The translations under genes were made by a program, and so were the position numbers. Shown here piece by piece: positions 31,312-49,644 of a stretch of DNA of 64,000 bases. The first letter of the stretch is position 1. Each line of letters opens with the position of its first letter. Origin of the DNA: an uncultured Actinomycetes bacterium (GTDB taxonomy: Bacteria; Actinomycetota; UBA4738; JBBDTT01); assembly GCA_963742735.1 (NCBI GenBank), contig CAVUMN010000004.1, positions 1,280,001 through 1,344,000 on the forward strand. The letters run 5' to 3'. The notes under the pieces were generated by a model that saw only the letters and a list, made by a program, of their open reading frames with translations, was not told where the DNA came from and ran no database searches.

Positions 31312-32697
31312 GTGACCACCGACGTTCGCGTGGCCGTCATCGGCCTCGACTGCGGGACACCTCAGCTGCTGTTCGACTCTCTCAAGGACGAGGTTCCCAA
31401 CATCAACAAGCTCATCGAGCGCTCCATGTGGGGCGAGCTGCAGTCGATCACGCCCCCGATCACGGTCCCGGCCTGGGCGTGCGCCATGAGCGGCAAGACC
31501 CCGGGCCAGCTGGGGATCTACGGGTTCCGCAACCGCAAGGACTCGACCTACGACGGCCTGTCGATCGCCACGAGCGACGCCGTCAAGGAGTCCCAGGTGT
31601 GGGACCTCCTCGGCGCCCAGGGGAAGAAGTCCCTGCTCATCGGGGTGCCGCCCGGCTACCCGCCGAAGCCCGTGGAGGGCTGGCGAGTCTCGTGCTTCCT
31701 GACCCCGCCCTCGGCCAAGTCCTACACGTGGCCCCCCGAGCTCGCGGCGGAGGTCGAGGAGGAAGTGGGCGAGTACATCTTCGATATCCCCAACTTCCGC
31801 GAGCAGGGGTTCGAGCACGTCCACCAGCAGGTCTACGCGATGACGGAGCGGCGCTTCAAGCTCGCCCGCCGGCTCATCAAGAACAAGCCGTGGGACTACT
31901 TCATGCTCGTCGAGATGGGACCGGACCGGCTCCACCACGTGTTCTGGCACTTCTGTGACCCGGCCCATCCGAAGTACGTCCCGGGGAACCCGTTCGAGTC
32001 CGCGTTCCGCGACTACTACCGCTACCTCGACAAGGAGGTCGGCTCGCTGCTCGAGCTGATCCCGCAGGACGCGGTGACGATCCTCATGTCCGATCACGGC
32101 GCCCGGCCGATGGTGGGCGGGGTGTGCTTCAACGACTGGCTCCAGCGCGAGGGCTACCTGGCGCTTTCGAGCTCGCTCGACGGGCCGACCCCCATCGCCA
32201 AGGCCCCGATCGACTGGTCGAAGACCATGGCCTGGGGCGACGGCGGCTACTACGGCCGCCTGTTCCTCAACGTGAAGGGCCGCGAGCCGCAGGGCGTCAT
32301 CGAGCCGGCCGACTACGAGCGCGTCCGCGACGAGATGATCGCGAAGCTGGAGGCGATGCCGGACCACCAGGGCCGGCCGATGGGAACGATCGTCTACAAG
32401 CCGGAGGACGTCTACGCCGAGGTCAATGGCGTCGCCCCCGACCTGATCGTCTACTTCGGCGACCTCGAGTGGCGATCGGTCGGGACGATCGGCACCGGCG
32501 ACGTGTATACGTTCGAGAACGACACCGGCCCCGACGGCGCGAACCACGCGCAGTCCGGGGTGTTCGCGATGGCCGGCGCGCCGGGGCAGCCGAGCGGCCG
32601 GCAGGAGGGTTTGCGTCTGGTGGACGTGGGCCCCACGATCATGAAGCTCTACGGGCTCGACGTGCCCGGAGACGCAACCGGAAGGAGCATGCTGTGA
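31312..32697 (+). CDS. Alkaline-phosphatase-superfamily protein (type I phosphodiesterase/nucleotide pyrophosphatase)
   Basis: [43 protein letters not shown]. Confidence 0.87.
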
Positions 32698-33275
32698 CGG
32701 AGACGCAGGCGGCCACGAGGGAGCGGCCGATGAGGAACGGAGACGACCCGCGCGGGTTCTGTCTGTGGCTCACCGGGCTCTCGGGGGCGGGCAAGTCCAC
32801 CCTCGCGGAGCTGCTGGTGGGCGAGCTCGCGCACCGCGAGGTGAGGACCGAGCTGCTGGACGGCGACATCGTCCGCACCAACCTCTCCAAGGGCCTCGGG
32901 TTCTCCAAGGAGGACCGCGACACGAACATCCTGAGGATCGGCTTCGTCGCCCACCTGCTGCAGCGCAACGGGGTGGGCGTGGTCGTCTCCGCGATCTCGC
33001 CCTACAAGGACGTGCGCAACCAGTGCCGCGCGATGATGGGCGAGGACTTCATCGAGATCTACGTGAACGCGCCCCTGGACGTCTGCGAGTCACGCGACGT
33101 GAAGGGCCTCTACGCGAAGGCGCGGGCCGGTGAGCTCAAGGGCTTCACCGGGATCGACGACCCGTACGAGCCCCCGGACCACCCGGAGCTGGAGCTCCGG
33201 ACGGACGCCTTGTCGCCCACGGAGTGCCTGGCCAAGGTGCTGGGGCTCCTCGAGGAGAGGGGATACCTGCGATGA
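32694..33275 (+). CDS. cysC: Adenylyl-sulfate (APS) kinase
   Basis: [46 protein letters not shown]. Confidence 0.95.
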
Positions 33276-35279: not shown

Positions 35280-36818
35280 GTGACCGACGAGCCGAGGCCC
35301 GTCCTGGTCGTCGACTTCGGCGCGCAGTACGCGCAGCTGATCGCGCGCCGCGTCCGCGAGTGCAACGTCTACTCCGAGATCGTCCCGCACGACATCCCCG
35401 TGGCGGAGCTCCGCCGCCGCCGCCCGGCCGGTCTGATCCTGTCGGGGGGCCCGATGAGCGTGTACGAGGAGGGCGCCCCGCAGCTCAACCCGGAGTTCCT
35501 AGAGACCGGCGTCCCCGTCCTGGGCATCTGTTACGGCCAGCAGGCCATGACCCGGGCGCTGGGAGGCGAGGTGGCCCACAGCGGGATCCGGGAGTACGGC
35601 AAGACCGAACTGACCGTGACGACGCCGGGCGTCCTGCTCCGAGACCTCCCCACCGAGCAGATCGTCTGGATGAGCCACGGCGACGCCGTGACCCGGCCTC
35701 CCGAAGGGTTCCGCCCCACCGCCAGCACCGACGCCTCGCCGGTGGCGGCCATGGAGGACCCCGAGCGCGGACTGTTCGGCGTGCAGTTCCACCCCGAGGT
35801 GGCGCACACCCCGCGCGGGCTCGACGTCATGAAGCGGTTCCTGCACGACGCCTGCGGGCTCCTGCCGGACTGGACGCCGATCACCGTGGTCGAGCGCGCC
35901 GTCGAGCAGGTCCGGGCGCAGGTGGGGGACCAGGAGGTCCTGTGCGCGCTCTCGGGCGGCGTGGACTCGGCGGTGGCGGCACTGCTGGTCCACCGAGCGG
36001 TGGGGGAGCGCCTGACGTGCGTGTTCGTCGACACCGGCCTGCTGCGTCTGGGCGAGCCCGAGCAGGTCGAGGAGACCTTCCGCGGCCACTTCGGCATCGA
36101 CCTGGTGCACGTGAAGGCCGAGGACCGGTTCCTGGGACGACTCGCGGGCGTGACCGACCCGGAGGACAAGCGCAAGGCGATCGGCGAGGAGTTCATCCGG
36201 GTCTTCGAGGAGGTGGCCCGCGATCACACCGGCGCCCGCTTCCTGGTCCAGGGAACCCTGTATCCCGACGTCATCGAGTCCGGGACCCGCGACGCCGCGA
36301 AGATCAAGAGCCACCACAACGTGGGCGGGCTCCCTGAGGACATGGACTTCGACCTGGTCGAGCCCCTGCGCGACCTGTTCAAGGACGAGGTCCGAAAGGT
36401 GGGACAGGAGCTCGGTCTGCCCGAGGAGATCGTGTGGCGCCAGCCGTTCCCCGGTCCGGGCCTGGCGGTGCGCATCATCGGCGAGGTCACCAAGGAGCGC
36501 CTGGAGATCCTCCGCGGGGCCGACGCGGTGGTCCAGGAGGAGATCCGCCGCGCCGGCCTGACCCGGGAGCTGTGGCAGGCGTTCGCGGTGCTCCCGGCGA
36601 TCCGCAGCGTCGGGGTCATGGGCGACGGCCGCACGTACGCCTACCCCATCGCGGTACGCGCGGTCACGAGCGAGGACGCGATGACCGCCGACTGGGCCCG
36701 GCTGCCCTACGAGGTCCTGGAGCGCATCTCCAGCCGGCTGGTGGCCGAGGTGGCCGGGGTCAACCGGGTGGTCTACGACATCTCGTCGAAGCCGCCGTCC
36801 ACCATCGAGTGGGAATGA
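35280..36818 (+). CDS. guaA: GMP synthase (glutamine-hydrolyzing)
   Basis: [52 protein letters not shown]. Confidence 0.98.
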
Positions 36819-37090
36819 CCGCCTCGCCGCTGCGGATCCCCGACGACGTGGTGTTCGAGGTGCTCGGGGAGGACACGGTGCTCCTGCAGCTCGAGAGCGG
36901 CGACTACTTCACGCTGAACGGCTCCGCCACGCGGGCGTGGCAGCTCATCGAGGAGCACGGCGACCTGGATCGCGTCCGCCAGGCGATGCTCGCCGAGTAC
37001 GAGGTGCCCCACGACCAGCTGAACGCCGACCTCGACCGGCTTGTGGGAGACCTCGTTGAGCGCGGCCTCCTCGACCGGTCCTCCGGCTGA
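36815..37090 (+). CDS. PqqD-family RiPP recognition element (lasso B1/E protein)
   Basis: 91 aa; [44 protein letters not shown] is the PqqD/RRE pattern; ATG overlaps guaA TGA. Confidence 0.92.
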
Positions 37091-37556
37091 GCCCCGGCCC
37101 CGGCGCGGCGCGGCCGGGGCGCTGGGCGCCTTCCTCCGACGGACCCCCGGCGAGCGGGCCGCGGTCGTGCGCGCCCTCCCGGCGCTCGCCCGGGTGGAGC
37201 TCGGCCTCCGCGGGCACGCCCCGCTGCCCGAGCTCGCCGCGCGGCTGGGGATCCGACTGGGCACGGATCCCACCGAGCGCCCGCGGCGGGGCGCCCCGCT
37301 CTCGGAGCGCGAGCGGCTGGACGTCGACGCGGCGCGGCGGATGGTGCGGCGGGTCCCCGCCGAGGCCCGGTGCCTCCGCCGCGCGCTCCTGGTCGGCCAC
37401 GCCCTGCGGGCGCGCGACCCGGTGCTCCGGATCGGGGCGGCCAAGCACGACGGCCACATCCACGCCCACGCGTGGATCGAGGTCGGCGGCCAGGTCCCCG
37501 AGGACACCGAGCACGGCGTGACGTTCCTGCCACTCCGACGGGCCCGGGGCTCGTGA
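37056..37556 (+). CDS. Lasso peptide leader peptidase (B2, transglutaminase-like)
   Basis: RCLRRAL (catalytic Cys), LRIGA, HAHAWIE (catalytic His); start TTG 37056 or 37041. Confidence 0.92.
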   Translation: MSAASSTGPPAEPRPRRGAAGALGAFLRRTPGERAAVVRALPALARVELGLRGHAPLPELAARLGIRLGTDPTERPRRGAPLSERERLDVDAARRMVRRVPAEARCLRRALLVGHALRARDPVLRIGAAKHDGHIHAHAWIEVGGQVPEDTEHGVTFLPLRRARGS

Positions 37557-38476
37557 GCGAGGTCTACCTGGTCCACGGGTTCCGGATGGAATCCGACGTG
37601 GAGCTGCCCGCGCCGCGGACGGACGGTCGGGTGGACCTGTCGGTCACGGTGGAGGATCCCCGTCCGGTCGCGGACGCGCCGCCGCCCGGGAGGGTGCTCG
37701 CGTCCGTCGAGGAGGACGGGTTCACCTACACGGTGACCGACGACGGGGGCACCCTGCGGGTGCGGGTGCCTCGCTTCGCCGAATTCGAGGTGGACCCGGA
37801 GCGGCGGCGGGCGCGGATGCATCGCGACCCGTCGGCCGACGCGGGGATCGAGTCGATCCTCATCTGTGGATCCCTCCCGGCGGCCCTGCTCGCCGAGGCG
37901 GGGGCCTGCGTCCTTCACGGGAGCGCGGTCCAAGCCGGCGGCCGCGCGGTCGCCTTCGTCGGTGGTTCCGGCGGGGGCAAGTCCACGCTCGCGGCGGTGC
38001 TGTGCGCCGCGGGCGCCAGGCTGATCACGGACGACCTGCTTCGACTGATCGTGGACGGCGACGAGGTCCGCGCGGCCGCCGGGCCCCCCGAGATCCGGCT
38101 GCGGCCGGCGGCGGCTCAGCTGGCGGCGGGCCTGGCGGGTGAGGCGTCGCAGACCGCGGACGGCCGTACGGCGGTCCGCGTGGAGGAGGGCGCCGAGTCG
38201 CCGCTCGCGACGATCATCATCCCGTCGCCCGATCGTGAGATCGCGGAGGTGCACGCCGAGCGTCTGAGCGGGGCGGAGGCGCTGGTGGAGCTTGGGCGCT
38301 ACCCGCGGGCGGCGGGGTGGCGACCCCCGGAGGTTCGGGCCGCGCGGTTCAGGGCGCTGGCCCAGGTCTCGCGGGCCGTCCCCGTGTTCCGGGCGCGGAT
38401 CCCCTGGGGCCCCCCGTTCGCCGAGGACCTGGCGGAGGCGCTGCTCGGGCTGGCCGGACTCGGGGTGCCACGTTGA
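37553..38476 (+). CDS. HPr-kinase-like lasso peptide kinase
   Basis: LHGSAV, GGSGGGKST P-loop, ITDDLL; located inside the lasso cluster. Confidence 0.85.
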   Translation: MSEVYLVHGFRMESDVELPAPRTDGRVDLSVTVEDPRPVADAPPPGRVLASVEEDGFTYTVTDDGGTLRVRVPRFAEFEVDPERRRARMHRDPSADAGIESILICGSLPAALLAEAGACVLHGSAVQAGGRAVAFVGGSGGGKSTLAAVLCAAGARLITDDLLRLIVDGDEVRAAAGPPEIRLRPAAAQLAAGLAGEASQTADGRTAVRVEEGAESPLATIIIPSPDREIAEVHAERLSGAEALVELGRYPRAAGWRPPEVRAARFRALAQVSRAVPVFRARIPWGPPFAEDLAEALLGLAGLGVPR

Positions 38477-40230
38477 GCCTGCGGCCCCTCAGCGACCTGC
38501 TCGCGGTCCGCTCGCCCGATCCCGGCCGGCTGGAGGCGCTCGAGGGCGAGCTCCGGTCGAGCGGCCGGTTCGCGCAGGTGTGGCGCCCGGCACCCGGCTG
38601 GGTGGTGGCCGCCGCGCCGCTGCCGGACTCGGACGCGGACGGTGAGGCGGTCCGGGGGGCCGGGCTGGCTTTCGTCGAGGGGCGCGAGGTCGTGGGTGCC
38701 GACGATCCCGGCCGGGCGATCGAGATCGCCCACCGCGCGGCGCACGCGCCGGCGACACTCGACGGCCTTCCCGGAGACTTCACGTTCCTGGCGTTCGGCA
38801 CCGATGGCTCGCTGACCGTGGTCCGGGCGGCGGCGGGTCTCGCCCCCCTCTACGTCACGGGGGAGGGGGCGGTGGCCAGCCGGATGGACCTCCTCCTCCG
38901 GTTCGGCCTCGCCGAGCCGGACCTGGACCCGCTGCCGAACGCGATGTGGCTCACGGGTTTCGCGCTGTTCCCCGACGGCCGAAGCCTGATCGCGGGGGTC
39001 CATGTGGTCGAGCGGGGGTCCTACTGGCGCATCGGCCCGGGCGGCGAGCGAAGCTCCGGCGTCTACTGGAATCCGCGCGCGCAGGAGCTGGCCCCGCCAA
39101 CGCCGGCCGTCCTCGAGGAACGGTCGGCGCGCCTCCGGGAGATCCTGGTCGAGCGCCTGACCGCCGACCTCGATCCACGGGAGGGGAACCTGCTGTCGCT
39201 CTCCGGCGGGATGGACTCCTCGTCGCTGCTGGCGCTGGCCGCCGGGACCCTCGGGCTGCCGGTGGCCGCCCTGTCGTTGCTGCCGGAACGGGGTCCCGCG
39301 GTGGACCGTGAGCTCGGCTACATCCGGGCGGCGTCCGAGCGCGGTCCGCTGGCCGAGCACTTCCAGTACCCCATGAGCGTCGAGTTCCGGCGCCGCCTTC
39401 GCCGGTCGGCCCCCGCGGTGGCGGTCCAGTGCCTGCACCCGATCCTGATGGTCCTGCCGGAGGTGCTCGAGCGGTGGCCGGTCCGGGTGCTGTTCGGTGG
39501 CGAGTCGGGGGACGACATCGCCGGCTCGCACTACACGATGGAGGACTGGGTCCACCACACCTCCCTCTCACGCCTGCTGGGCTCCGTCGGGCGGTTCCCG
39601 CACGGGCCCCAGGACGTGGCGCGTTGGCTGAAGTGGCGGTCGGAACGCCTCCGGGGGAGGCCGCGGCTCCCGTTCCCGGATCGCCTGGCGCCGTGGACGC
39701 ACCCGGACGTCCAGACGGAGTACCGGGCGTGGGTCGCCGACCGGCGCCGGGAGCTCCTGGACGACGAGCTGCCCCGGCCGAACTTCGCGATGCGGGACCG
39801 GATGGACGGTTGGCTGGCGATGAACTGGGAGGTGACCGCGACACTCGGCGTGCGGCGGTCGATCCCGTTCTACAACCGGGCGAGCGTCGAGCTGGCCTTC
39901 GGCACCCATCCCCGGACCCTGGTGGGACCGGGTATGAAGCGCCTGCTCAGGCGGGGGCTGGCCGCCGACGTCCCGCGGGTCGTCCTGGAGCGCCCGGACA
40001 AGGGGGGGTGGGGCTCCGCCGTCGAGCCCGAGCCGGCGTCCGTCCCGGAGGAACCGATGGACCTCTCCCTTGGGTCCATCCTGCATCCGAACCGCCTGGC
40101 GTCTCCCTCGCCGCCGGTCGATTCGGCCGAGGCGAGCCGCCTGTCGGTGCTCGTCCGATTCCTGGAGGGGGCGCGGGCGGCCCGTGCGGGTGATCCGACG
40201 GCTTCGCCGCGTGGCGGCGGATCTTCTTGA
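38473..40230 (+). CDS. Lasso peptide cyclase (asparagine-synthetase-like isopeptide synthetase)
   Basis: SLSGGMDSS PP-loop, GGESGD, RSIPFY, KRLLR..VP..ERPDK; no N-terminal catalytic Cys of a true AsnB. Confidence 0.9.
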   Translation: MSLRPLSDLLAVRSPDPGRLEALEGELRSSGRFAQVWRPAPGWVVAAAPLPDSDADGEAVRGAGLAFVEGREVVGADDPGRAIEIAHRAAHAPATLDGLPGDFTFLAFGTDGSLTVVRAAAGLAPLYVTGEGAVASRMDLLLRFGLAEPDLDPLPNAMWLTGFALFPDGRSLIAGVHVVERGSYWRIGPGGERSSGVYWNPRAQELAPPTPAVLEERSARLREILVERLTADLDPREGNLLSLSGGMDSSSLLALAAGTLGLPVAALSLLPERGPAVDRELGYIRAASERGPLAEHFQYPMSVEFRRRLRRSAPAVAVQCLHPILMVLPEVLERWPVRVLFGGESGDDIAGSHYTMEDWVHHTSLSRLLGSVGRFPHGPQDVARWLKWRSERLRGRPRLPFPDRLAPWTHPDVQTEYRAWVADRRRELLDDELPRPNFAMRDRMDGWLAMNWEVTATLGVRRSIPFYNRASVELAFGTHPRTLVGPGMKRLLRRGLAADVPRVVLERPDKGGWGSAVEPEPASVPEEPMDLSLGSILHPNRLASPSPPVDSAEASRLSVLVRFLEGARAARAGDPTASPRGGGSS

Positions 40231-40255
40231 CACTGTTCAGCACAGCCCCTACTGT
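40227..40255 (+). promoter_or_regulatory. Near-consensus promoter dedicated to the lasso precursor gene
   Basis: TTGACA-N17-TACTGT; GAGGAG RBS at 40276-40281. Confidence 0.75.
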
Positions 40256-40289: not shown

Positions 40290-40427
40290 ATGGAAAGCCA
40301 GACCGAGCAGGAAGAGGCGCGCAAGCCGTACGAACCCCCGGCCGTGCGTGAGCTCGGCAAGGTCGCGGAGATCACCCACGGGATCAACGCCCTTCCGGGC
40401 AGCGACAACACGGTCGCCAGCGTCTAG
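40290..40427 (+). CDS. Lasso peptide precursor (45 aa; predicted core GINALPGSDNTVASV)
   Basis: Leader YEPPAVRELGKVAEIT-H fits YxxPxL/VxxxGxxxxxT(-2); core starts Gly1 with Asp at position 9. Confidence 0.92.
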   Translation: MESQTEQEEARKPYEPPAVRELGKVAEITHGINALPGSDNTVASV

Positions 40428-40433
40428 AGCTCC

Positions 40434-41495
40434 TCAGCCCGACGCGTCACGGCGCCACACGGCCCGTCCGATCCACGCTCGAAACGCCCTCCAGTCCATG
40501 CGGCCGTTCGCGTCCCTGAACCGGCGCGGATCGAGCCGGCCGATCGCGTAGACCAGGCCCTCACGGGGCCCCAGCTCCCGGATCCTGGCGATCTGCAGCC
40601 GCACGCCTCTGGCGTCGGTCTGGCGGGCTTCCGCGAGCCGCCCCCGTGGCGCCGGCGTGGGCCGGGCCCCCCACCTGGGCTCGCCCAGGGCACGCTCGGC
40701 GGCGGCCAGGGCGTCCTCCAGGGCCCATCCGACCCCGTGGCGCCCCGCGAGCTCCCGCGCGGTCTCGACGTCGCCTGGCAGGCCGAGCTCCACGAAGTCC
40801 ATCACCCACTGGTACCGGAACGTCTCGGGCGGGTGATGGGCCAGGTGGACGGCCAGGGCCATCAGCTGCGCGGGCGCCGAGAGCCTCAGCAGGCCGTCGT
40901 CCCCCGGGTCGGCGTGCGCCGCGAGCGCCGCGTGGTCCAGTCCCCGGGCGCGACGCTCGGCGAACAGCCGCCAGTGCATCTCGACGGCGATCGGCGCGCC
41001 GGGGCCCGGTCGCGTGAAGACCAGGTGGTGGTGATAGCGCAGGGCCGACCGCGTCTCCCACGCGGTCGGCCCCGTGTAGCCGATCCCTTCCAGCGCCGTT
41101 CTCCACGCGGGAAGGTCGTCCACGGGAACCAGGAGGTCGACGTCGACGAACGTCCGGATCGCGGGATCGGCGTAGCGGGAGGCCACCGCGGGCCCCTTCA
41201 GCAGGATGGCCGTCGCGGCCTCGGGCGGAGCGGCCCCCGCCACGCGCCGCGCCTCCAGCCCGAGCACCGTGGCCAGTGCCCGGGCGGAGCCCCAGTCGTC
41301 GCGGAGCCCGGCCAGGACGGGCTCCGGCAGGCGCAGCCCCTCGGCCCTCGAGACCACCAGCCCGGAGAGGCCGTGGCGCGCCGCGCGTCCCCGGAGTGCC
41401 TCCGACGCCCCGGCGCCGAGGGCCCCGGGGTTCCGGCCCCCCACCAGGGCCTCGAGGTACCGGTCCGCCTCGTCCTCGGCCTCGACGGTTCCCAT
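40434..41495 (-). CDS. Uncharacterised nucleotidyltransferase-family protein (NTP_transf_5-like), lasso-associated
   Basis: ILLKG..RY..R.FVDVDLLV..VEMHWRL..LAVHLAHH..WVMD. Confidence 0.85.
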   Translation of the reverse strand: MGTVEAEDEADRYLEALVGGRNPGALGAGASEALRGRAARHGLSGLVVSRAEGLRLPEPVLAGLRDDWGSARALATVLGLEARRVAGAAPPEAATAILLKGPAVASRYADPAIRTFVDVDLLVPVDDLPAWRTALEGIGYTGPTAWETRSALRYHHHLVFTRPGPGAPIAVEMHWRLFAERRARGLDHAALAAHADPGDDGLLRLSAPAQLMALAVHLAHHPPETFRYQWVMDFVELGLPGDVETARELAGRHGVGWALEDALAAAERALGEPRWGARPTPAPRGRLAEARQTDARGVRLQIARIRELGPREGLVYAIGRLDPRRFRDANGRMDWRAFRAWIGRAVWRRDASG

Positions 41496-41501
41496 CCGAT
41501 C

Positions 41502-42296
41502 TCAGTAGTCCGCGATCGCGCCGGTGCGCATCGCCCGGCGGATCGACCAGGCGAGTGCCCCCACGCCCATCCCGGCGAAGGCGACGGCCAGCCCGGCGAG
41601 CGCCGCGACGTCGCCGAGGGACGCGCCCCAGCCGTCGCCCCGGAGGAGGCCGGCCCGCACCAGCCGCAGCGAGTGGGTGAACGGCGAGAGCTCCGAGAGC
41701 GACTCCGCCCAGTTCGGGAGCAGGCTCGCAGGGAACAGGGAGCCGGCGGTGACGGTGAGCAGGCTGACCAGGAACGCGGCGGCGGCCTGCGCCTGCCGGA
41801 ACAGGATCACCAGCGCAGCGGCGACCAGCCCCAGTCCCGCGAACGCGATCGCTCCGGCGACGACCCCGTAGAGGGCGAGGCTCCAGTTGCCCCCGGGCGC
41901 TCGCGCGCCCAGCAGCGCCGCCACGCCGACGTAGAGCGCGGAGCGGCCGGCGGCGTACGCCATCGGGTACGCCGCCATCCCCGCGGCGACGGCTCGGGCC
42001 GGGAGGCCCACCGACAGCGTGGCCTCCAGGGTTCCCTGGACCTGCTCCTGCCGGAAGTTCGCGGACAGGATCGAGACGCCCGCCGCCAGGAAGGACGTGA
42101 GGGCGATGCCCGCCGCGGCGAAGGAGAAATAGCCTCCCGGAACCCGCCCCGGGTCAACCAGGCGCCCGACGAAGACGAACGTGATCAGCAGGAACGCGGC
42201 CGACAGCACCTCGCCGGCGATCAGCGGCAGGGGGTAGGACCACGCCACCCGGGCGTCGCGCCTGACGAAGGCGCCCACCGCGGACCGCGGGCTCAT
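41502..42296 (-). CDS. ABC-2 type exporter permease
   Basis: Six TM segments; RQEQVQGTLE, GSLFP..LP.W..LSPFTH. Confidence 0.88.
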   Translation of the reverse strand: MSPRSAVGAFVRRDARVAWSYPLPLIAGEVLSAAFLLITFVFVGRLVDPGRVPGGYFSFAAAGIALTSFLAAGVSILSANFRQEQVQGTLEATLSVGLPARAVAAGMAAYPMAYAAGRSALYVGVAALLGARAPGGNWSLALYGVVAGAIAFAGLGLVAAALVILFRQAQAAAAFLVSLLTVTAGSLFPASLLPNWAESLSELSPFTHSLRLVRAGLLRGDGWGASLGDVAALAGLAVAFAGMGVGALAWSIRRAMRTGAIADY

Positions 42297-42931
42297 GCCG
42301 GCTCCACGGCGGGCTGCAGCTCCAGCCGGACGTCCGGCTCGGGACCCTCCGCCTCGAGCGGCGCCGCGTACAGCACCACGCCTCCGCCGGACGTCCACGC
42401 CCGGCAGGCCGCCTCGACCGCCGCGCAGCCCGGCCGGTCGAGGTCCGCGTACGGCTCGTCGATCAGGACGACCGGGGGCCGGCCGACGAGGGCCCGGGCG
42501 ATGGCCACCCGTCGCCGCTGGCCCGTCGAGCAGACGCCCATGCGTCGTTCGAGCAGCGGTTCGGCGTCCAGGGCCTTGGCGGCCCAGGCCACGTCCGTGC
42601 CGCCCGCGCCCGAGATCCCGGCGAAGAACTCCAGGTTCGCCCGCCCCGTGAGCCGCCAGTACAGGCCTCGGTCGCCCGCCGGGACGAAGCCGCTCCGCCC
42701 CCGCCCGGGCGGGGCGCCGGCCACCTCGACCCGGCCCGCGTCGGGCAGCAGGACCCCCGCGAGCACCCGTAGCAGCGTGGTCTTGCCCGATCCGTTGGGG
42801 CCCACGAGGGCCGCCAGCGTGCCCGCCTCGAGCCTCACGGAGACGTCGTCCAGGACTCGCCGGGCGCCGAAGCTCCGGGTGACGCCCTCGGCCTCGAGGG
42901 AGCCGGGCGAGGCGGGGCCGGGCCGGTCCAT
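42293..42931 (-). CDS. ABC exporter ATP-binding protein (degenerate Q- and H-loops)
   Basis: GPNGSGKTT Walker A, CSTGQRRR signature, VLIDEP Walker B; LYWRLTGRANLEFF. Confidence 0.88.
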   Translation of the reverse strand: MDRPGPASPGSLEAEGVTRSFGARRVLDDVSVRLEAGTLAALVGPNGSGKTTLLRVLAGVLLPDAGRVEVAGAPPGRGRSGFVPAGDRGLYWRLTGRANLEFFAGISGAGGTDVAWAAKALDAEPLLERRMGVCSTGQRRRVAIARALVGRPPVVLIDEPYADLDRPGCAAVEAACRAWTSGGGVVLYAAPLEAEGPEPDVRLELQPAVEPA

Positions 42932-42958: not shown

Positions 42959-45133
42959 GTGACTCCCGAATCCCCCCTCCTGTCGACCCTCAACCCGGTG
43001 CAGCGCGAGGCCGTGCTGCACGCGGACGGCCCCGTGCTGATCGTGGCCGGGGCGGGCAGCGGCAAGACCCGGATCCTCACCCACCGGATGGCCTACCTGA
43101 TCCGAGAGATGGGCGTGTCCCCGTACGCCATCCTGGCGATCACGTTCACCAACCGGGCCGCCAACGAGATGGCCGAGCGGGTCGAGGCCCTCCTGGGGGA
43201 GCGCGTCGCCAAGGGCATGTGGGTGCTGACGTTCCACTCGTCGTGTGTGCGGATCCTCCGCCGCGAGCACAAGCGCCTCGGTCTGCCGGCGTCCTTCTCG
43301 ATCTACGATGAATCCGACACGCAGCGGGTCGTCTCGATGTGCCTCAAGGAGGCGAACCTGGACGTCAAGAAGTTCCCGCCCCGGGGCGTCGCCGCGGTGA
43401 TCGGCAAAGCCAAGGACCACCTGATCAGCCCCGAGGAGTTCGCCGACCAGGCCTCCAACTGGTACGAGCGCTCGGTGGCCGACGTCTACCGCGCCTACCA
43501 GCGGCGGCTCCAGGCGGCCGGCGCGCTGGACTTCGACGACATCATCGTGCGCACCGTGAACCTGTTCCGCTCCCAGCCCGAGGTCCTGGAGCACTACCAG
43601 GAGCGGTTCACCCACATCCTGATCGACGAGTACCAGGACACGAACCGCGCGCAGTATCACCTGGTGAACCTGCTGGCCTCCAAGCACCGCAACCTGTGCG
43701 TGGTCGGCGACGCCGACCAGGGCGTGTACTCCTGGCGCGGGGCGACGATCCAGAACCTCCTCGAGTTCGAGAAGGACTACCCGGACGCGGCCGTGTTCGT
43801 CCTGGAGCAGAACTACCGCTCGACGCAGAACATCCTCTCGGTCGCGAACGCGCTCATCGAGCACAACCTGGAGCGCAAGCCGAAGTCGCTGTGGACCGAG
43901 GCTCCGGGTGGGGAGATGGTCGTGCGGGTTCGCGCCAACGACGAGCACGACGAGGCCTGGTTCGTGGCCGAGGAGATCACGCGACTGACCGACGAGGGGC
44001 CGTACCGGTACGGGGACGTGGCGGTGTTCTACCGGACCAACGCCCAGTCGCGGGTCCTGGAGGACGTCCTGTCGCGGGCGGGCCTGCCGTACCGGGTGGT
44101 CGGGGGCGTGCGCTTCTACGAGCGCCGGGAGGTCAAGGACCTCATCGCGTACCTCCGCCTGCTGGTGAACCCGGCGGACGTGGTCTCGGCCCGGCGCGTG
44201 GTGGGCGTGCCGAAACGGGGGATCGGCGAGGCGACCGTGGCGGCGCTGGAGGGCTTCGCCCGCGACGAGGAGATCACGTTCCTGGAGGCGGCCCGCCGCG
44301 TGGAGGAGATCGACGTCCTCGGGTCGAGGGCCAGAGGCGCCGTCGCCGGCTTCGTTCGCCTCATCGACAGCCTGCGGGCCATGGCCGAGGACGGGACCTC
44401 GGTCTCCGGCCTGGTCGAGGCGGCGTTCACCGAGTCTGGGTACATGGCCGAGCTCGAGGCGGAGCGGACCGTGGAGGCCGAGGGACGCGTGGAGAACCTG
44501 AAGGAGCTCGTCGGCGTCGCCGCGGAGTTCGAGGCCCGGTCCGAGGAGGCCGGGCTCGCCGACTTCCTGGAGCAGATCGCGCTGGTGACCGACCAGGACG
44601 AGTACGAGGACGCCGAGTCGACGGTGACGCTGATGACGCTGCATACCGCCAAGGGCCTGGAGTTCCCGGCGGTGTTCGTCGTGGGCATGGAGGACGGGGT
44701 GTTCCCGCACTACCGCTCGATGGGCGACCCGTCCCAGCTCGAGGAGGAGCGGCGGCTGGCGTACGTGGGCATCACCCGCGCCCGGGAGCGCCTGTACCTG
44801 ACGCACGCGTGGAGCCGGAACCTGTGGGGCGGCTCGTCGTTCAACCCGCCCTCGCGCTTCCTGGGCGAGATTCCCGAGGCGTTCGTGAAGCTCCACCAGG
44901 TCGAGGGGACCTCGGAGGGCGCCGGGGCGGGCAACGGCGCCGGCCGTTCGGGCATCCAGCAGCGCGCGGTGCCCACCCTGGTCGCCGGCGACACCGTCAT
45001 CCACGACCGCTGGGGGCCGGGGGTGGTGGTCGAGGTGTTCGGGGCGGGACAGCGCGCCGAGGCGAAGATCGCGTTCGAGGACCAGGGCGAGAAGCGGCTG
45101 CTCCTCGCCTATGCGCCCATCCGGAAGGCATAG
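42959..45133 (+). CDS. pcrA: ATP-dependent DNA helicase PcrA/UvrD
   Basis: AGAGSGKT, ITFTN.AA.EM, IDEYQDTN, VGDADQ..Y.WRGA, NYRST, HTAKGLEF, EEERRLAYVG.TRA. Confidence 0.97.
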   Translation: MTPESPLLSTLNPVQREAVLHADGPVLIVAGAGSGKTRILTHRMAYLIREMGVSPYAILAITFTNRAANEMAERVEALLGERVAKGMWVLTFHSSCVRILRREHKRLGLPASFSIYDESDTQRVVSMCLKEANLDVKKFPPRGVAAVIGKAKDHLISPEEFADQASNWYERSVADVYRAYQRRLQAAGALDFDDIIVRTVNLFRSQPEVLEHYQERFTHILIDEYQDTNRAQYHLVNLLASKHRNLCVVGDADQGVYSWRGATIQNLLEFEKDYPDAAVFVLEQNYRSTQNILSVANALIEHNLERKPKSLWTEAPGGEMVVRVRANDEHDEAWFVAEEITRLTDEGPYRYGDVAVFYRTNAQSRVLEDVLSRAGLPYRVVGGVRFYERREVKDLIAYLRLLVNPADVVSARRVVGVPKRGIGEATVAALEGFARDEEITFLEAARRVEEIDVLGSRARGAVAGFVRLIDSLRAMAEDGTSVSGLVEAAFTESGYMAELEAERTVEAEGRVENLKELVGVAAEFEARSEEAGLADFLEQIALVTDQDEYEDAESTVTLMTLHTAKGLEFPAVFVVGMEDGVFPHYRSMGDPSQLEEERRLAYVGITRARERLYLTHAWSRNLWGGSSFNPPSRFLGEIPEAFVKLHQVEGTSEGAGAGNGAGRSGIQQRAVPTLVAGDTVIHDRWGPGVVVEVFGAGQRAEAKIAFEDQGEKRLLLAYAPIRKA

Positions 45134-45140
45134 TGGCGCC

Positions 45141-47108
45141 GTGAGCGTCAACGCCCGCCCACGCGCCCGTACCGGTGGCGCGCTGGACCGCGACCGGCGA
45201 CGGGCCCGGCGCACCGTGCACCCCGGAGCCTTCCGGCGGCGCCGGTGGCCGTGGGTCGTCGGCGGCGGGCTCGCCCTCCTGTTCGGCCTGGTCACGTTCC
45301 AGGCGTACCGGATCGCGCTGTACACGGCGGAGGACCTCCGTTCGGCGGCCCTGGTCCTGAAGGTGGGCCCGGGCTTCCTGGTGGGCGGCACCCCCTTCTC
45401 CGACGACGCGTTCACCCGCGTGGAGACCTCGATCGACAAGGCCATCGAACGCGTGGAGAACGCGAACTGGTCGTTCGACGTGGTCGGGGCGGTGCCGCTG
45501 CTGGGGCGTCCCGTTCACGCCGCCGAGCACCTGGTCCGGGCGGCGGCCATCGAGCTCGACTCGATCAAGCTCGCCCGGAGGACGCTCGCCGACATCACGG
45601 GCGAGGACGGGTCGAGCCCGCTGCTGCGCAACGGCCAGGTGGACCTGGACACCCTCCGCGCCGCCGCGGCCACCCTGGAGAAGATCATGTCCGACCTCGC
45701 GCTGGTGGAGGCCGAGGTCCGGGCCGTGAAGCCGATCCCGTTCGTGGCCGAGACGGCGCGGCTCAAGGCCGAGGCTCTCGCGGAGCTCGCCCGGGTCCGG
45801 GAGAGCGCCGAAGTGATCCGCCGGGCGCTCGCCATCATCCCGAACTTCCTCGGCGACGAGGAGCCGCGGATCTACCTGCTCGCGGTCCTCAACAACGCCG
45901 AGCTGCACGGGGTGGGTGGGGCGTTCCTGTCCTTCGGCGTGGTGAAGGCGCGGTTCGGGCGCCTGGGCCTGGTGGGGGATCCGGGCGACCCCCTCATGCT
46001 CGATCCACGGACCGATCCGGAGCCGGTCCCGGCGCCCGCGGACAACTACTACCTGAACGAGATCTACCCCGTGCACCTGGTGAACGCGCTCAACGGGCCC
46101 GACTTCGCGCAGGGGGCCCGGCTGGCCTCGGATATCGCGGAGGCCAAGTTCGGCCGTCCGCTCGACGGGGTGATCGCCGTGGATGCGGTCGGTCTGTCCT
46201 ACATCCTGCCCGCGGTCGGCCCGATCAAGTTCCCCAAGCCCAAGGTCGTGCTCACGCCGCAGAACTTCGTGAAGTTCTCGACCAACGCGCAGTACCTGCT
46301 GTATCCCTACGACGTCCGCCAGCGGATCCAGAAGGCAACGATCGAGCACGTGTGGGGCCGGATCGGCAGCGCGGCGAATCCCCTCGCGCTGCTCCGGGGC
46401 CTGTCCCGGGGCCTCGAGGAGCGCCGGGTGCTGCTCTGGTCCCGCTTCCCGGAGGAGCAGCGCCTGTTCCGGTCCAAGGACTGGGCGGGGGCGCTGTTCA
46501 AGCCCCACGGCGACTACTTCCTGCTGAACCACCAGAACCTGGGGGTCGACAAGCTCGACTACTACCTGCGGGAGCACGTGCGCTACAGGGTCCGCATCGA
46601 GGAAGACGGCGACCTGGACGTCGAGGCCCAGATCGTGATGCGCAACACCGCGCCGCCGGACCTGCCCAGGCCGGTCGGCAACAACGACGGCTCGAAGATG
46701 CGAACGCTGCTGGGGGCATTCGTCCACGGCCGGGCGGAGTTCGAGGGCCTCGCCGTCCAGGACGACAGCGCCACGGTGCCCGACGGGCCTCGAGCCGAAC
46801 GGGCGACCGTCGGCTACGGCAAGAACCTGTACCTGACGATCGTCAAGATCGACGGGAAGTCGAAGGCGGTGGTCAAGATCCGGTACCGGGTCCCGAACGC
46901 GGTCGTGAACACCGACGCCGGCCGGTTCTACCGCCTGCTGATACAGCACCAGCCGCTGGTGCATCCGGCGACGGTGCGCGTCGAGCTGATCCCGGGTGAG
47001 GGGGTCTCCTTCGGGCAGCTCTCGGCGTTGTGGACGCTCGTCGAGGGCAAGGCCGTGTACGAGGGACCGCTGGAACGGGACCTGGTCCTGGACGTGCCCC
47101 TGCGCTGA
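45141..47108 (+). CDS. DUF4012-domain membrane-anchored protein (paralog 1)
   Basis: N-terminal TM; FLG...R.YLL...NNAEL.G.GG, PDF, DGVIAVD, KLDYY, IQHQP; start uncertain. Confidence 0.8.
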   Translation: MSVNARPRARTGGALDRDRRRARRTVHPGAFRRRRWPWVVGGGLALLFGLVTFQAYRIALYTAEDLRSAALVLKVGPGFLVGGTPFSDDAFTRVETSIDKAIERVENANWSFDVVGAVPLLGRPVHAAEHLVRAAAIELDSIKLARRTLADITGEDGSSPLLRNGQVDLDTLRAAAATLEKIMSDLALVEAEVRAVKPIPFVAETARLKAEALAELARVRESAEVIRRALAIIPNFLGDEEPRIYLLAVLNNAELHGVGGAFLSFGVVKARFGRLGLVGDPGDPLMLDPRTDPEPVPAPADNYYLNEIYPVHLVNALNGPDFAQGARLASDIAEAKFGRPLDGVIAVDAVGLSYILPAVGPIKFPKPKVVLTPQNFVKFSTNAQYLLYPYDVRQRIQKATIEHVWGRIGSAANPLALLRGLSRGLEERRVLLWSRFPEEQRLFRSKDWAGALFKPHGDYFLLNHQNLGVDKLDYYLREHVRYRVRIEEDGDLDVEAQIVMRNTAPPDLPRPVGNNDGSKMRTLLGAFVHGRAEFEGLAVQDDSATVPDGPRAERATVGYGKNLYLTIVKIDGKSKAVVKIRYRVPNAVVNTDAGRFYRLLIQHQPLVHPATVRVELIPGEGVSFGQLSALWTLVEGKAVYEGPLERDLVLDVPLR

Positions 47109-47169
47109 GCGTGAGCCCGGGAACAGGGCGAAACCTCCAAAGCCACAACCGTTCGATAGACTCGCCCGA

Positions 47170-49644
47170 ATGTCGCGCGACTTCCTCCCCGCGCCGGTCG
47201 AGTTCCCGGGGGGTCGCCGCCGCCGAACCAAGCGGCGCCGTCACCGAAGCCACGGAAGCCAGGGCTCCTCCTCCCAGGGCCGTCGTTCCGCGCGCCCCGG
47301 CGGGAGCGGGCCCGCGCGTGCCGACGGGAGCGTGCTCACCGACGAGCTCGACGGCCTCGCCCCCCTCGAGCCCCAGTCGCCCTATCGCCGCCGGCGCAGC
47401 CGGCGCAGCAAGCGAGGCCTCGGCCACCGCTACCGCAAGTGGCGCAGCCGGCGCGAGCGCCGGAAGTACAAGTCGTTCATGGGGGGCCACGCCGAGAGCT
47501 CCCGCGACGTCGCCCGTCGCTACGAGCGGTCGCGATCCCGCCGCAAGCGCCTGGTCATCGGCGGCGTGGCGGCGGTCGTCCTGGGGGCGTTCGGGGTCGC
47601 GGCCGGCGACGCCTACCTCCAGGCCTCGAGCGTCCTGGACAAGGTCCGCGACTCCGGGGAGAGCCTCAAGCAGGTCCGGTCGAACCTGATCCGGGGCAAG
47701 CTCCCGCCGGAGGAGGCGTTCGCGGCCGCCGCCAAGGCGATCGGTGAGGCCCAGGAACAGGTCAACGGGGTGCGGGCCACGTGGCCGGTGGTGCGCGCCG
47801 TGCCGTTCATCGGGCTGCCCGTGTCGGCCACGGAGCGCCTGCTCGAGGCGAGCCGGCACGAGCTGAGCGCCGCCATCGCGGCCAAGGAGCTGCTCGAGGA
47901 CATCCTGGGCCAGACGATCGAGGAGGCCCGGGCCGAGGCCGAGGAGGCGGCGGCCCGGCGCGAGGAGGCCGACGCCGACGGCAGCGGGACCCTGACGCCC
48001 GAGGAGCGCCGCGAGCTGAAGGCGGCCGGCCAGGGCCCGAAGGGCGGCGGCGGGAAGGAGGCGCCCGCCCAGGACGACCCGAACGCGCTGCTGTCCAACG
48101 GCAAGGTGAACCTGGCCCGGATGCGCGAGCTGATCCCCAAGGTCCAGACGCTGGAGACCGAGCTCGCCGCGGCCGAGGCGGCCGTCGAAGCGATCGGGCC
48201 CGTCCCGTTCGTGTCCAAGGTCGAGGAGCTCCGCCAGGACCTGATCGGGGAGATCCAGGAGTCACGTCGCCTGGCCCAGCGAGCCCTCACGGGGCTGAAC
48301 TTCATCCCCGCGTTCCTCGGGTCCGGCGAGCAGAAGAACTACCTGCTGCTGTTCTCGGACAGCGGCTTCCTGCGGGGCACGGGCGGGGCGTACTTCGCGT
48401 ACGCGGAGATCTCCGTGAAGTCCGGGAAGCTCTCACTGGTGAACCAGGGCCCGATCATCGACCTCGACAAGTACGTCAACGAGCCGGTCGACCACGTCGT
48501 CCCGAAGGAGAACTGGTACCTGGAGACCTTCGGGCTCTCCAAGCGGATGAACAACCTCAACTGGGACCCGCACTTCCCGAACACCGCCCCGGTCGCGGCC
48601 GAGATCTACAAGCTCCGCACGGCGGGCAAGGACATCAACGGCGTCGTGAAGCCCGAGGGCCGCCAGGTCGACGGCGTGTTCCAGATCGACATCACCGGCG
48701 TCTCGTATCTGGTCGACGCCATCGGCCCGATCGCGGTGGACTCGTGGCCGGACCCGATCGGCGGCGGCAACCTCGAGCGCGTCGCGCTCATCGACTCCTA
48801 CGTGGAGCTCTCCTCGGGCGCCGCGGCGGACGACGCGTCGGACTCCGGGGCCGCGCGCAAGGCGTTCAACGAGGACCTGGTCGACGCCACGTGGAAGAGC
48901 CTCCAGGAACCCGACGACCTGGTCCGCACCGTGTTCCAGCTCTCCCGCGCCCTGGCCGAGCGCCACATGCAGGTGTGGGTCCGGGCCCCGAAGCAGCAGG
49001 CCTTCTTCGAGGACCTGGGGATGGCCGGGGCGATCAAGGACGAGCCCGGCGACTACGTGTACGCGGTCGACCAGAACCTGGGCGACGACACCCTCGACGT
49101 CTTCACCTCGGAGCGGGTCGACTACGACGTGGTCGTGGACGAGGACGGCAACCTCGACGTGACGACGACCGTGAAGGCCACGAACTTCGTGGACGAGACG
49201 ATGCCGTACCCGATCCTCGACAACAGCGGCCCGCCGGACAAGAAGACCTACGTGAACCTCTACGTCCCGGCCAACGCCGAGCTGAAGTCGGTGAAGTACG
49301 TGAACCGGTTCAAGGAGAGCACGCCGCAGCAGATCGAGCCGCACCTCGAGGCCGGGCGGAAGGTGTTCAGCGCCCAGATGTCGATCAAGCCCCAGGAGAC
49401 CGCCTCCCTGGTGTTCAAGTACCGGGTTCCGGGCGGGCTCCTCGACGAGGATGGGCGGCTGTACCGCCTGCTCGTACAGCGCCAGCCCCGCTACGTGGAC
49501 CAGTCCCTGCGGGTGACGGTGCACTTCCCCGAGGACTGGGGCGCCGAGGGCTACGACGACGAGGTCTGGACGGTCGACGGGAACACGGCCACGGCGTTCG
49601 TCGAGGCCCTCGAGGAGGACGCGGTCTTCGAGCTGCGGTTCTGA
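47170..49644 (+). CDS. DUF4012-domain membrane-anchored protein (paralog 2) with Arg-rich N-terminus
   Basis: FLG....NYLLLF....LRGTGG, NWDPHFP, VDGVFQID, VQRQP; TAGACT lies 7 nt before the ATG. Confidence 0.8.
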   Translation: MSRDFLPAPVEFPGGRRRRTKRRRHRSHGSQGSSSQGRRSARPGGSGPARADGSVLTDELDGLAPLEPQSPYRRRRSRRSKRGLGHRYRKWRSRRERRKYKSFMGGHAESSRDVARRYERSRSRRKRLVIGGVAAVVLGAFGVAAGDAYLQASSVLDKVRDSGESLKQVRSNLIRGKLPPEEAFAAAAKAIGEAQEQVNGVRATWPVVRAVPFIGLPVSATERLLEASRHELSAAIAAKELLEDILGQTIEEARAEAEEAAARREEADADGSGTLTPEERRELKAAGQGPKGGGGKEAPAQDDPNALLSNGKVNLARMRELIPKVQTLETELAAAEAAVEAIGPVPFVSKVEELRQDLIGEIQESRRLAQRALTGLNFIPAFLGSGEQKNYLLLFSDSGFLRGTGGAYFAYAEISVKSGKLSLVNQGPIIDLDKYVNEPVDHVVPKENWYLETFGLSKRMNNLNWDPHFPNTAPVAAEIYKLRTAGKDINGVVKPEGRQVDGVFQIDITGVSYLVDAIGPIAVDSWPDPIGGGNLERVALIDSYVELSSGAAADDASDSGAARKAFNEDLVDATWKSLQEPDDLVRTVFQLSRALAERHMQVWVRAPKQQAFFEDLGMAGAIKDEPGDYVYAVDQNLGDDTLDVFTSERVDYDVVVDEDGNLDVTTTVKATNFVDETMPYPILDNSGPPDKKTYVNLYVPANAELKSVKYVNRFKESTPQQIEPHLEAGRKVFSAQMSIKPQETASLVFKYRVPGGLLDEDGRLYRLLVQRQPRYVDQSLRVTVHFPEDWGAEGYDDEVWTVDGNTATAFVEALEEDAVFELRF

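Follow-up and report, generated by a model that had tools for sequence, protein, structure and literature searches.

Two strategies are established for locking lasso peptides, one relying on bulky side chains and the other on disulfides. In class II lasso peptides it is as a rule bulky residues, aromatic for the most part, that keep the thread in place, and their removal gives products prone to unthreading (2026 review, PMC13352647). A possible departure from this scheme was described for pseudomycoidin, made by the psm cluster of Bacillus pseudomycoides, which has an Ala1-Asp9 ring. There, PsmK places a phosphate on the C-terminal Ser, and the addition of one or two hexoses to this phosphate requires PsmN; without K and N the peptide is branched-cyclic, and the L21F variant is threaded (PMC6993621). 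Zyubko et al. suggested in 2019 that the bulky C-terminal modification could itself be the lock, as a 'third strategy' (PMC6993621).

The lasso kinases characterised so far are reported to act on the linear precursor and not on the threaded lasso (PMC8498205), and those of the paeninodin type to recognise specifically a C-terminal Ser (PMC8498205, PMC9266682). For two other kinases the site is Ser3: the Bsf kinase (PMC10368454) and LppK, which belongs to the linear polyphosphorylated peptides, or LPP (PMC13381572). The LppN homologue is described as inactive in a heterologous host (PMC13381572). We describe here a locus in which both types of tailoring enzyme accompany a very short precursor with Ser at the penultimate position of its core.

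Organization of the cluster

The window, i.e. the whole 64,000-nt stretch of GC-rich DNA analysed here, contains a group of eight genes lying between guaA and pcrA (Table 1). On the + strand the order is B1, B2, HprK-like kinase (K), cyclase (C) and precursor, while the genes of an ABC ATPase, an ABC-2 permease and a PsmN-like nucleotidyltransferase (N) are carried by the - strand and converge on the precursor. The precursor and five maturation genes were identified through curated models, the model matches of the kinase being weak and under cut-off. A leader-binding B1 element, a B2 protease and an asparagine-synthetase-like cyclase, the three components by which a lasso cluster is recognised, are all present. 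The top NCBIfam match of B1 is lasso_PqqD_Strm, under its cut-off; B2 also matches Pfam Transglut_core3 (52.3 bits), and the lasso-specific NCBIfam cyclase models score under their cut-offs on C.

Table 1. Position of the features of the lasso cluster within the window
Feature	Position	Strand	Support and remarks
B1, PqqD-type RiPP recognition element (leader-binding chaperone)	36815..37090	+	Pfam PqqD, 62.6 bits (cut-off 23.4)
B2, transglutaminase-like leader peptidase	37041..37556	+	NF033537 lasso_biosyn_B2, 59.7 bits (cut-off 33); start codon uncertain
K, HprK-like peptide kinase	37553..38476	+	Hpr_kinase_C, weak match, E 2e-4, under cut-off
C, asparagine-synthetase-like lasso macrolactam synthetase	38473..40230	+	Pfam Asn_synthase, 33.7 bits (cut-off 21)
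Possible own promoter of the precursor (weak)	40227..40255	+	TTGACA, 17 nt, TACTGT; read from the sequence, overlaps the cyclase stop
Leader of precursor A	40290..40379	+	30 residues ending with Thr at -2 and His at -1
Core GINALPGSDNTVASV	40380..40424	+	Gly1 40380-40382, Asp9 40404-40406, Ser14 40419-40421
N, PsmN-like nucleotidyltransferase (PF14907)	40434..41495	-	Pfam NTP_transf_5, 106.9 bits (cut-off 31.2)
ABC-2 type exporter permease	41502..42296	-	Pfam ABC2_membrane, 49.7 bits
ABC exporter ATPase	42293..42931	-	Pfam ABC_tran, 85.4 bits

Several junctions are overlaps: ATGA between the guaA stop and the B1 start (36815-36818), GTGA for B2/K, TTGA for K/C, and again ATGA for ATPase/permease; 6 nt separate the stop side of the permease gene from N. 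Because the start of B1 overlaps the stop of guaA, the lasso operon appears to be translationally coupled to this housekeeping purine gene. The GC content of the cluster is 75-77%, versus 68-72% for its flanks, which are housekeeping in nature (a guaB-like gene and guaA upstream, pcrA downstream). No gene for a lyase, an extra peptidase or a signal peptidase was found in the guaA-pcrA interval.

Two other regions of the window may be mentioned. About 3.5 kb upstream of the cluster (31312-33275), a gene of the PF01663 family (type I phosphodiesterase/nucleotide pyrophosphatase) is followed by a PF01583 adenylylsulfate kinase gene; both were excluded as tailoring genes, the guaB-like gene, guaA and a membrane protein gene lying in between. 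Two large paralogous proteins are encoded side by side at 45111-47108 and 46996-49644, and the first of them matches DUF4012.

The precursor and its core

The open reading frame at 40290-40427 (+) runs from an ATG at 40290 to a TAG stop at 40425-40427. Its translation is a 45-residue precursor, made of the 30-residue leader MESQTEQEEARKPYEPPAVRELGKVAEITH and the 15-residue core GINALPGSDNTVASV. Residues 14-31 are matched by the NCBIfam model NF033521 (lasso_leader_L3) with 24.6 bits (cut-off 19). This is the one match in the whole genome (3.08 Mb in 5 contigs, 88.9% complete), and the model gave none across 14 control genomes. The spacing of the leader residues, Y14-x2-P17-x-V19-x3-G23-x5-T29-x-G31, agrees with the YxxPxL...T(-2) rule, so that precursor residue Gly31 is the first of the core. 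Two alternatives, a TTG start further upstream (40227) and a cut with Ile at -2, were discarded, since motif spacing and Gly1 agree with the Thr(-2) cut. Translation and model match thus bear out the boundary given in a preliminary description of this DNA, with Thr at -2 and a core extending from G1 to V15.

The precursor starts 59 nt past the cyclase stop, with GAGGAG 8 nt 5' of its ATG, and is no chance ORF. It carries the YxxPxL leader motif, Thr at -2 and an acidic residue within positions 7-9 of the core, as class II lasso precursors do. We conclude that the ORF is a true lasso precursor and that it belongs to the kind tailored by a kinase and a nucleotidyltransferase.

Asp9 being the sole Asp or Glu of the core, the ring must be Gly1-Asp9, which leaves a tail of six residues. 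That tail, NTVASV, is free of aromatic and basic residues and of Met, Leu, Ile, Gln, Glu and Cys; it offers no bulky steric lock, and its biggest side chains are those of Val, Thr and Asn. The preliminary description had read ring and tail in the same way, and had remarked on the lack of an aromatic or Arg plug and of Cys, as the composition confirms; its hand-calculated mass for the cyclised core (about 1395.70 Da, plus 79.97 when phosphorylated) agrees with the computed monoisotopic residue sums of 1395.6994 Da and, with HPO3, 1475.6657 Da. The values calculated for a product bearing HPO3 plus a hexose, and for one bearing AMP, are 1637.719 and 1724.752 Da.

As to close homologues of the precursor, a word-indexed search of 5.8 billion proteins returned the query alone and, when the precursor was used as a protein query against the 294 genomes of the order, 4 gave matches (its own genome included), confined to the leader region.

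As to expression, a promoter scanner called no promoter upstream of the precursor, and the -10 hexamer of the candidate listed in Table 1 matches at 3 positions out of 6. A terminator-like hairpin (8 pairs, then TCTTCTT) is located in the final codons of the cyclase gene, with the candidate promoter directly 3' of it, the two together covering 40203-40255; it is possible, from the sequence, that the two form an attenuation device plus a dedicated promoter for the precursor.

The kinase and the nucleotidyltransferase

Matches of the kinase to the Pfam and NCBIfam HprK models are weak and under cut-off; a PDB profile match was obtained with HPr kinase 1ko7 (E 4e-4). Residues H122, G137, G140, G142, K143, S144, D160 and D161 are invariant when the protein is aligned with three relatives (alignment A1). 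They make up a complete H...GxxGxGKS...DD motif, and all eight correspond, with an offset of 26, to BsfK residues H148, G163, G166, G168, K169, S170, D186 and D187, which mutagenesis showed to be important (Duan et al. 2023, PMC10368454).

The nucleotidyltransferase belongs to PF14907, the family that characterises pseudomycoidin-type clusters. Its G101, D118 and D120 (G...DxD) are invariant in 26 of 26 aligned relatives. The closest folds to its AlphaFold (AF2) model (pLDDT 81.4, pTM 0.77) are those of MenT1 (E 1.2e-4, target TM 0.64), ANT(2'')-Ia and LnuA, all Pol-beta-type enzymes that place a nucleotide on a hydroxyl. The modelled fold is compatible with a true nucleotidyl (or related) transfer. 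To judge from these residues, both kinase and nucleotidyltransferase are likely to be active.

The preliminary description had proposed a phosphate, or a phospho-adduct, as a plug installed on the tail. In principle such a modification is supported, since the two enzymes are there with intact catalytic motifs; the idea itself is not original, modification as a plug being already published, as a hypothesis, for the homologous PsmK/PsmN pair of pseudomycoidin.

A clade of cyclases associated with short cores and a penultimate Ser

The cyclase of the window shares 37-46% identity with others, each of which is immediately followed by a mini-precursor. A scan of metagenome contigs with the cyclase alone yielded 8 loci (37-45% identity): the precursor comes directly after the cyclase in 7, and the contig of the eighth stops inside C. 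K is directly upstream of the cyclase in 4 out of the 4 loci that are long enough, and N lies just past the precursor in 6. When the cyclase alignment was compared with species genomes, 11 further loci emerged, 8 with a precursor and 3 on contigs too short to tell. A FastTree tree of 51 cyclases, approximate and unrooted, placed the window cyclase in a set of 22 rows with a support of 99; several deep joins were flagged as long-branch, and only this set was relied on. Cores of 16 residues or fewer are found in 14 of the 22 rows and cores of 18-19 residues in 4, the remaining 4 having no precursor within the contig. The clade spans Actinomycetota, Chloroflexota, Planctomycetota, Gemmatimonadota, Methylomirabilota, Verrucomicrobiota, Myxococcota and Proteobacteria.

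The 21 distinct cores counted below are those of the window, of the cyclase-scan loci, and of loci L026, L050, L054, L056 and L062 from the kinase scan (see below), included on the ground that their cyclases fall in the 99-supported set; L025 duplicates L086. Among these related, and hence not independent, sequences the core is 13-16 residues long in 17 and the penultimate residue (-2 from the C-terminus) is Ser in 15. Ser occupies position -1 in 2 cores and -3 in 3, is absent from -4, and accounts for 10.6% of all 321 core residues. The 6 cores without Ser at -2 have it at -1, -3 or -5, or have Thr at -2. Thirteen tails are devoid of F, W, Y, R, H, K and M, and 4 of them, that of the window among them, additionally lack L, I, Q and E. 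The other 8 tails contain an aromatic, basic or Met residue, so that the modification is not always the sole possible lock.

Thr11 has no conserved counterpart in the 21 cores, and a Ser beside the ring-closing Asp occurs in 2, the window (Ser8) and L078, which is the closest core of 9+6 type. The frequency of the penultimate Ser (15 of 21) favours Ser14 over Thr11 and Ser8 as the tailoring site, and comparison of the sequences indicates that Ser14 is probably the residue that is phosphorylated. Between the two sites put forward in the preliminary description, Ser14 or Thr11, the comparison favours the first and lends no support to the second. A 15-residue core, a tail without a lock and a penultimate Ser are the norm of this cyclase clade, not an accident of one genome. 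In the literature searched, a corpus that stopped short of the primary paeninodin paper and its supplements, no paper used the expression 'penultimate Ser' in connection with lasso peptides or HPr kinases; as far as that corpus reaches, neither this clade of mini-lassos with a penultimate Ser nor the assignment to Ser14 has been described before.

Two features of individual loci are worth recording. In the Brocadiaceae locus L086 (3980-9777, on the same contig as L025), two lasso-type cyclases from different clades are found around one 15-residue precursor. In L022, L075, L077 and L080, 13-residue cores (8-residue ring and 5-residue tail) adjoin kinases; if threaded, they would equal in length the smallest known lasso peptide, with a larger ring.

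Position of the Ser residue among kinase-associated precursors

Scanning 185,579 species genomes with the kinase alignment identified 53 loci, 43 of which gave a total of 52 matches in a leader-motif scan. Seven matches (in L033, L042, L057, L061 (two), L065 and L068) were dropped as spurious: they were on the wrong strand, far from the cluster, or in Arg/Pro-rich read-through frames. C and N homologues in the kinase loci were sought by iterated HMMs, single-query tblastn being too insensitive. In the 45 curated precursors (42 loci), Ser is terminal in 34 and penultimate in 6, which end SF, SL, SV, SL, SF and SA; 5 have other ends. The window precursor ends with Ser14-Val15 and thus lacks the terminal Ser of the paeninodin/pseudomycoidin type.

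Mapped on a quick kinase tree, the penultimate-Ser type requires at least 4 changes. A pair of sister kinases, L041 and L036 (SH-aLRT 97), is associated with homologous tails ending ...LGS and ...IGSV, respectively, so that the final Val is an addition after the conserved Ser. A penultimate site has no experimental precedent among the characterised kinases, whose sites are the C-terminal Ser or Ser3; on the strength of the sequence comparison, the site rules of lasso kinases would extend to the penultimate Ser.

Related loci in the same order and genus

An L3-type lasso leader was detected in 9 of the 294 genomes of the order, including that of the window; 2 of the 9 (G026 and G209) are unpublished genomes. 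Of the same-order loci, the three that were retrieved, in G120, G226 and G026 (the latter unpublished), all have kinase and nucleotidyltransferase homologues. Those of G120 (L010) and G226 (L011) are lasso clusters embedded amid glycosyltransferase, carbamoyltransferase, dTDP-sugar and Wzz-type genes; the L010 nucleotidyltransferase carries a fused methyltransferase domain.

In a genome of the same genus (G264, 61% complete), B1, B2, K and part of C follow guaA; the contig ends inside C, before the precursor would be reached. Nucleotide identity with the window is 66% for the lasso genes versus 86% for guaA. The rest of this 61% complete genome yielded no member of the leader family and no N protein. 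Of the three extra genes that its locus has between guaA and B1 (L085, contig C190, 2501-4300), one codes for a signal peptidase I of archaeal type (75 bits with TIGR02228, cut-off 51.85), one for a protein with a DNRLRE domain and one for a secreted protein with weak resemblance to TasA. Signal peptidases of this sort have recently been connected with LPP clusters found together with paeninodin-like lasso clusters (PMC13381572).

A possible pathway and its alternatives

The reading that we favour, and hold to be somewhat more probable than its negation, is that the ORF codes for the precursor of a class II-type lasso peptide, made by a cluster of the paeninodin/pseudomycoidin kind, with a phosphate or phospho-adduct on Ser14 as candidate lower lock. 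B1 would bind the leader motif YEPPAV, and the HprK-like kinase would phosphorylate Ser14 on the linear, B1-bound precursor. B2 would then cleave after His(-1), and the cyclase would close the Gly1-Asp9 isopeptide ring around the six-residue, already modified tail. The PF14907 nucleotidyltransferase would extend the Ser14 phosphate with a nucleotidyl and/or hexose group, and the ABC-2 transporter would export the product. This order of steps is borrowed from PadeK and ThcoK, which act on linear precursors. No side chain of the tail exceeds Val, Thr or Asn in size, which makes the phosphate or adduct on Ser14 the only candidate lower lock; that it does act as a lock, and that the product is threaded at all, we infer. 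One phosphate may lack the bulk needed to lock a ring of 9 residues, and six tail residues may not suffice for any threading.

Extended to the whole clade, the proposal would be that lasso peptides of 13-16 residues, in several phyla, are secured by a phospho(-nucleotidyl/-glycosyl) group installed on the penultimate Ser prior to cyclisation, instead of by a side chain or a disulfide. We offer this generalisation as a conjecture that is rather unlikely to hold as it stands. If true, it would define a further class of lasso peptides, natural rotaxanes that a phosphatase could unthread. Retention of the thread is central to the stability and engineering of lasso peptides, and a post-translational lock has stood as a hypothesis since 2019. 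With its 9-residue ring and six-residue tail, the window precursor is an extreme natural case, which makes the modification-lock hypothesis directly testable.

The main rival is that the mature product is a branched-cyclic lariat, the phosphate or adduct serving for solubility, export recognition, target binding or self-protection and not for threading. We regard it as a serious contender, although an unlikely one. The pseudomycoidin pathway is conserved even though the peptide purified unmodified is branched-cyclic, and threading may simply be out of reach for tails of 5-7 small residues; moreover, LPPs use the same K and N enzymes without any ring (PMC13381572), from which it follows that the modification has a role independent of threading. 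However, the cyclase is a normal lasso-type enzyme, for which pre-folding is part of the mechanism, and the threaded L21F variant of pseudomycoidin shows that the homologous cyclase yields threaded products (PMC6993621). The tail Ser is also consistently located at the tip and not just anywhere in the peptide, in keeping with a positional role.

Much less probable is that the kinase targets another residue, Ser8 in the ring or Thr11, Ser14 being conserved for some other reason. The site can move, since BsfK and LppK modify Ser3, and Ser8 is common to the window and to L078; against this, the 2 of 21 cores with a Ser next to the ring-closing Asp and the variability at position 11 leave -2 as the sole position with a family-wide hydroxyl residue.

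Kinase-then-elimination chemistry occurs in other RiPPs, and phospho-Ser14 might be an intermediate that is eliminated to dehydroalanine; alternatively the final Val might be trimmed off, and in neither case would the mature peptide carry a bulky adduct. Work on a dehydroalanine-containing lasso peptide is cited in PMC13352647. We consider such an outcome very improbable: the guaA-pcrA interval has no lyase or extra peptidase gene, and conservation of the nucleotidyltransferase next to the precursor points to extension of the phosphate rather than to its removal. Least probable of all is a decaying or silent remnant without product, as could be imagined for a patchily distributed cluster (9 of 294 genomes of the order for the L3-type leader) known from the sequence of a MAG; all eight genes are open, the catalytic motifs intact and the gene junctions overlapping, and the G264 cluster occupies the same place.

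Comparison with known systems

The smallest characterised lasso peptides have smaller rings, depend on aromatic residues of the tail and are not known to come with a kinase; the window peptide differs from them by its 9-residue ring and by a tail without lock residue. In total length, 13-15 residues, they are alike. One such peptide is huascopeptin (Gly1-Asp7 ring; PMC9784485).

LPP clusters use a signal-peptidase-type leader protease and are described as having no cyclase or B2 (PMC13381572), whereas the window has both. The Bsf system of Bradymonas sediminis shares with the window an HprK-like kinase with identical motif spacing, and a site that is not C-terminal, as proposed here; its B1 stimulates phosphorylation (PMC10368454). 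However, the Bsf site is Ser3, in the ring, with Ile at -2 of the leader (PMC10368454), whereas the window has Asn3 and Thr at -2 and thus departs from the Bsf-type combination of Ser/Thr at core position 3 with Ile/Val at -2. The paeninodin and ThcoA/SyanA systems (Zhu et al. 2016), with PadeK, ThcoK and SyanK, resemble the window in their H/K/D/D-type motif, split B1/B2 and ABC exporter, but these kinases are described as recognising a C-terminal Ser (PMC9266682, PMC8498205), whereas the window precursor ends with Ser-Val.

Pseudomycoidin is like the window in having a 9-residue ring closed by Asp9, an HprK-like kinase together with a PF14907-type nucleotidyltransferase, and a tail without effective lock (PMC6993621). 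It differs in that its modified Ser is the last residue and not the penultimate one, and its tail is much longer, with residues to at least 23 (PMC6993621), compared with a core of 15 residues in the window. The hosts differ as well: pseudomycoidin comes from a Firmicute, the window from an Acidimicrobiales MAG.
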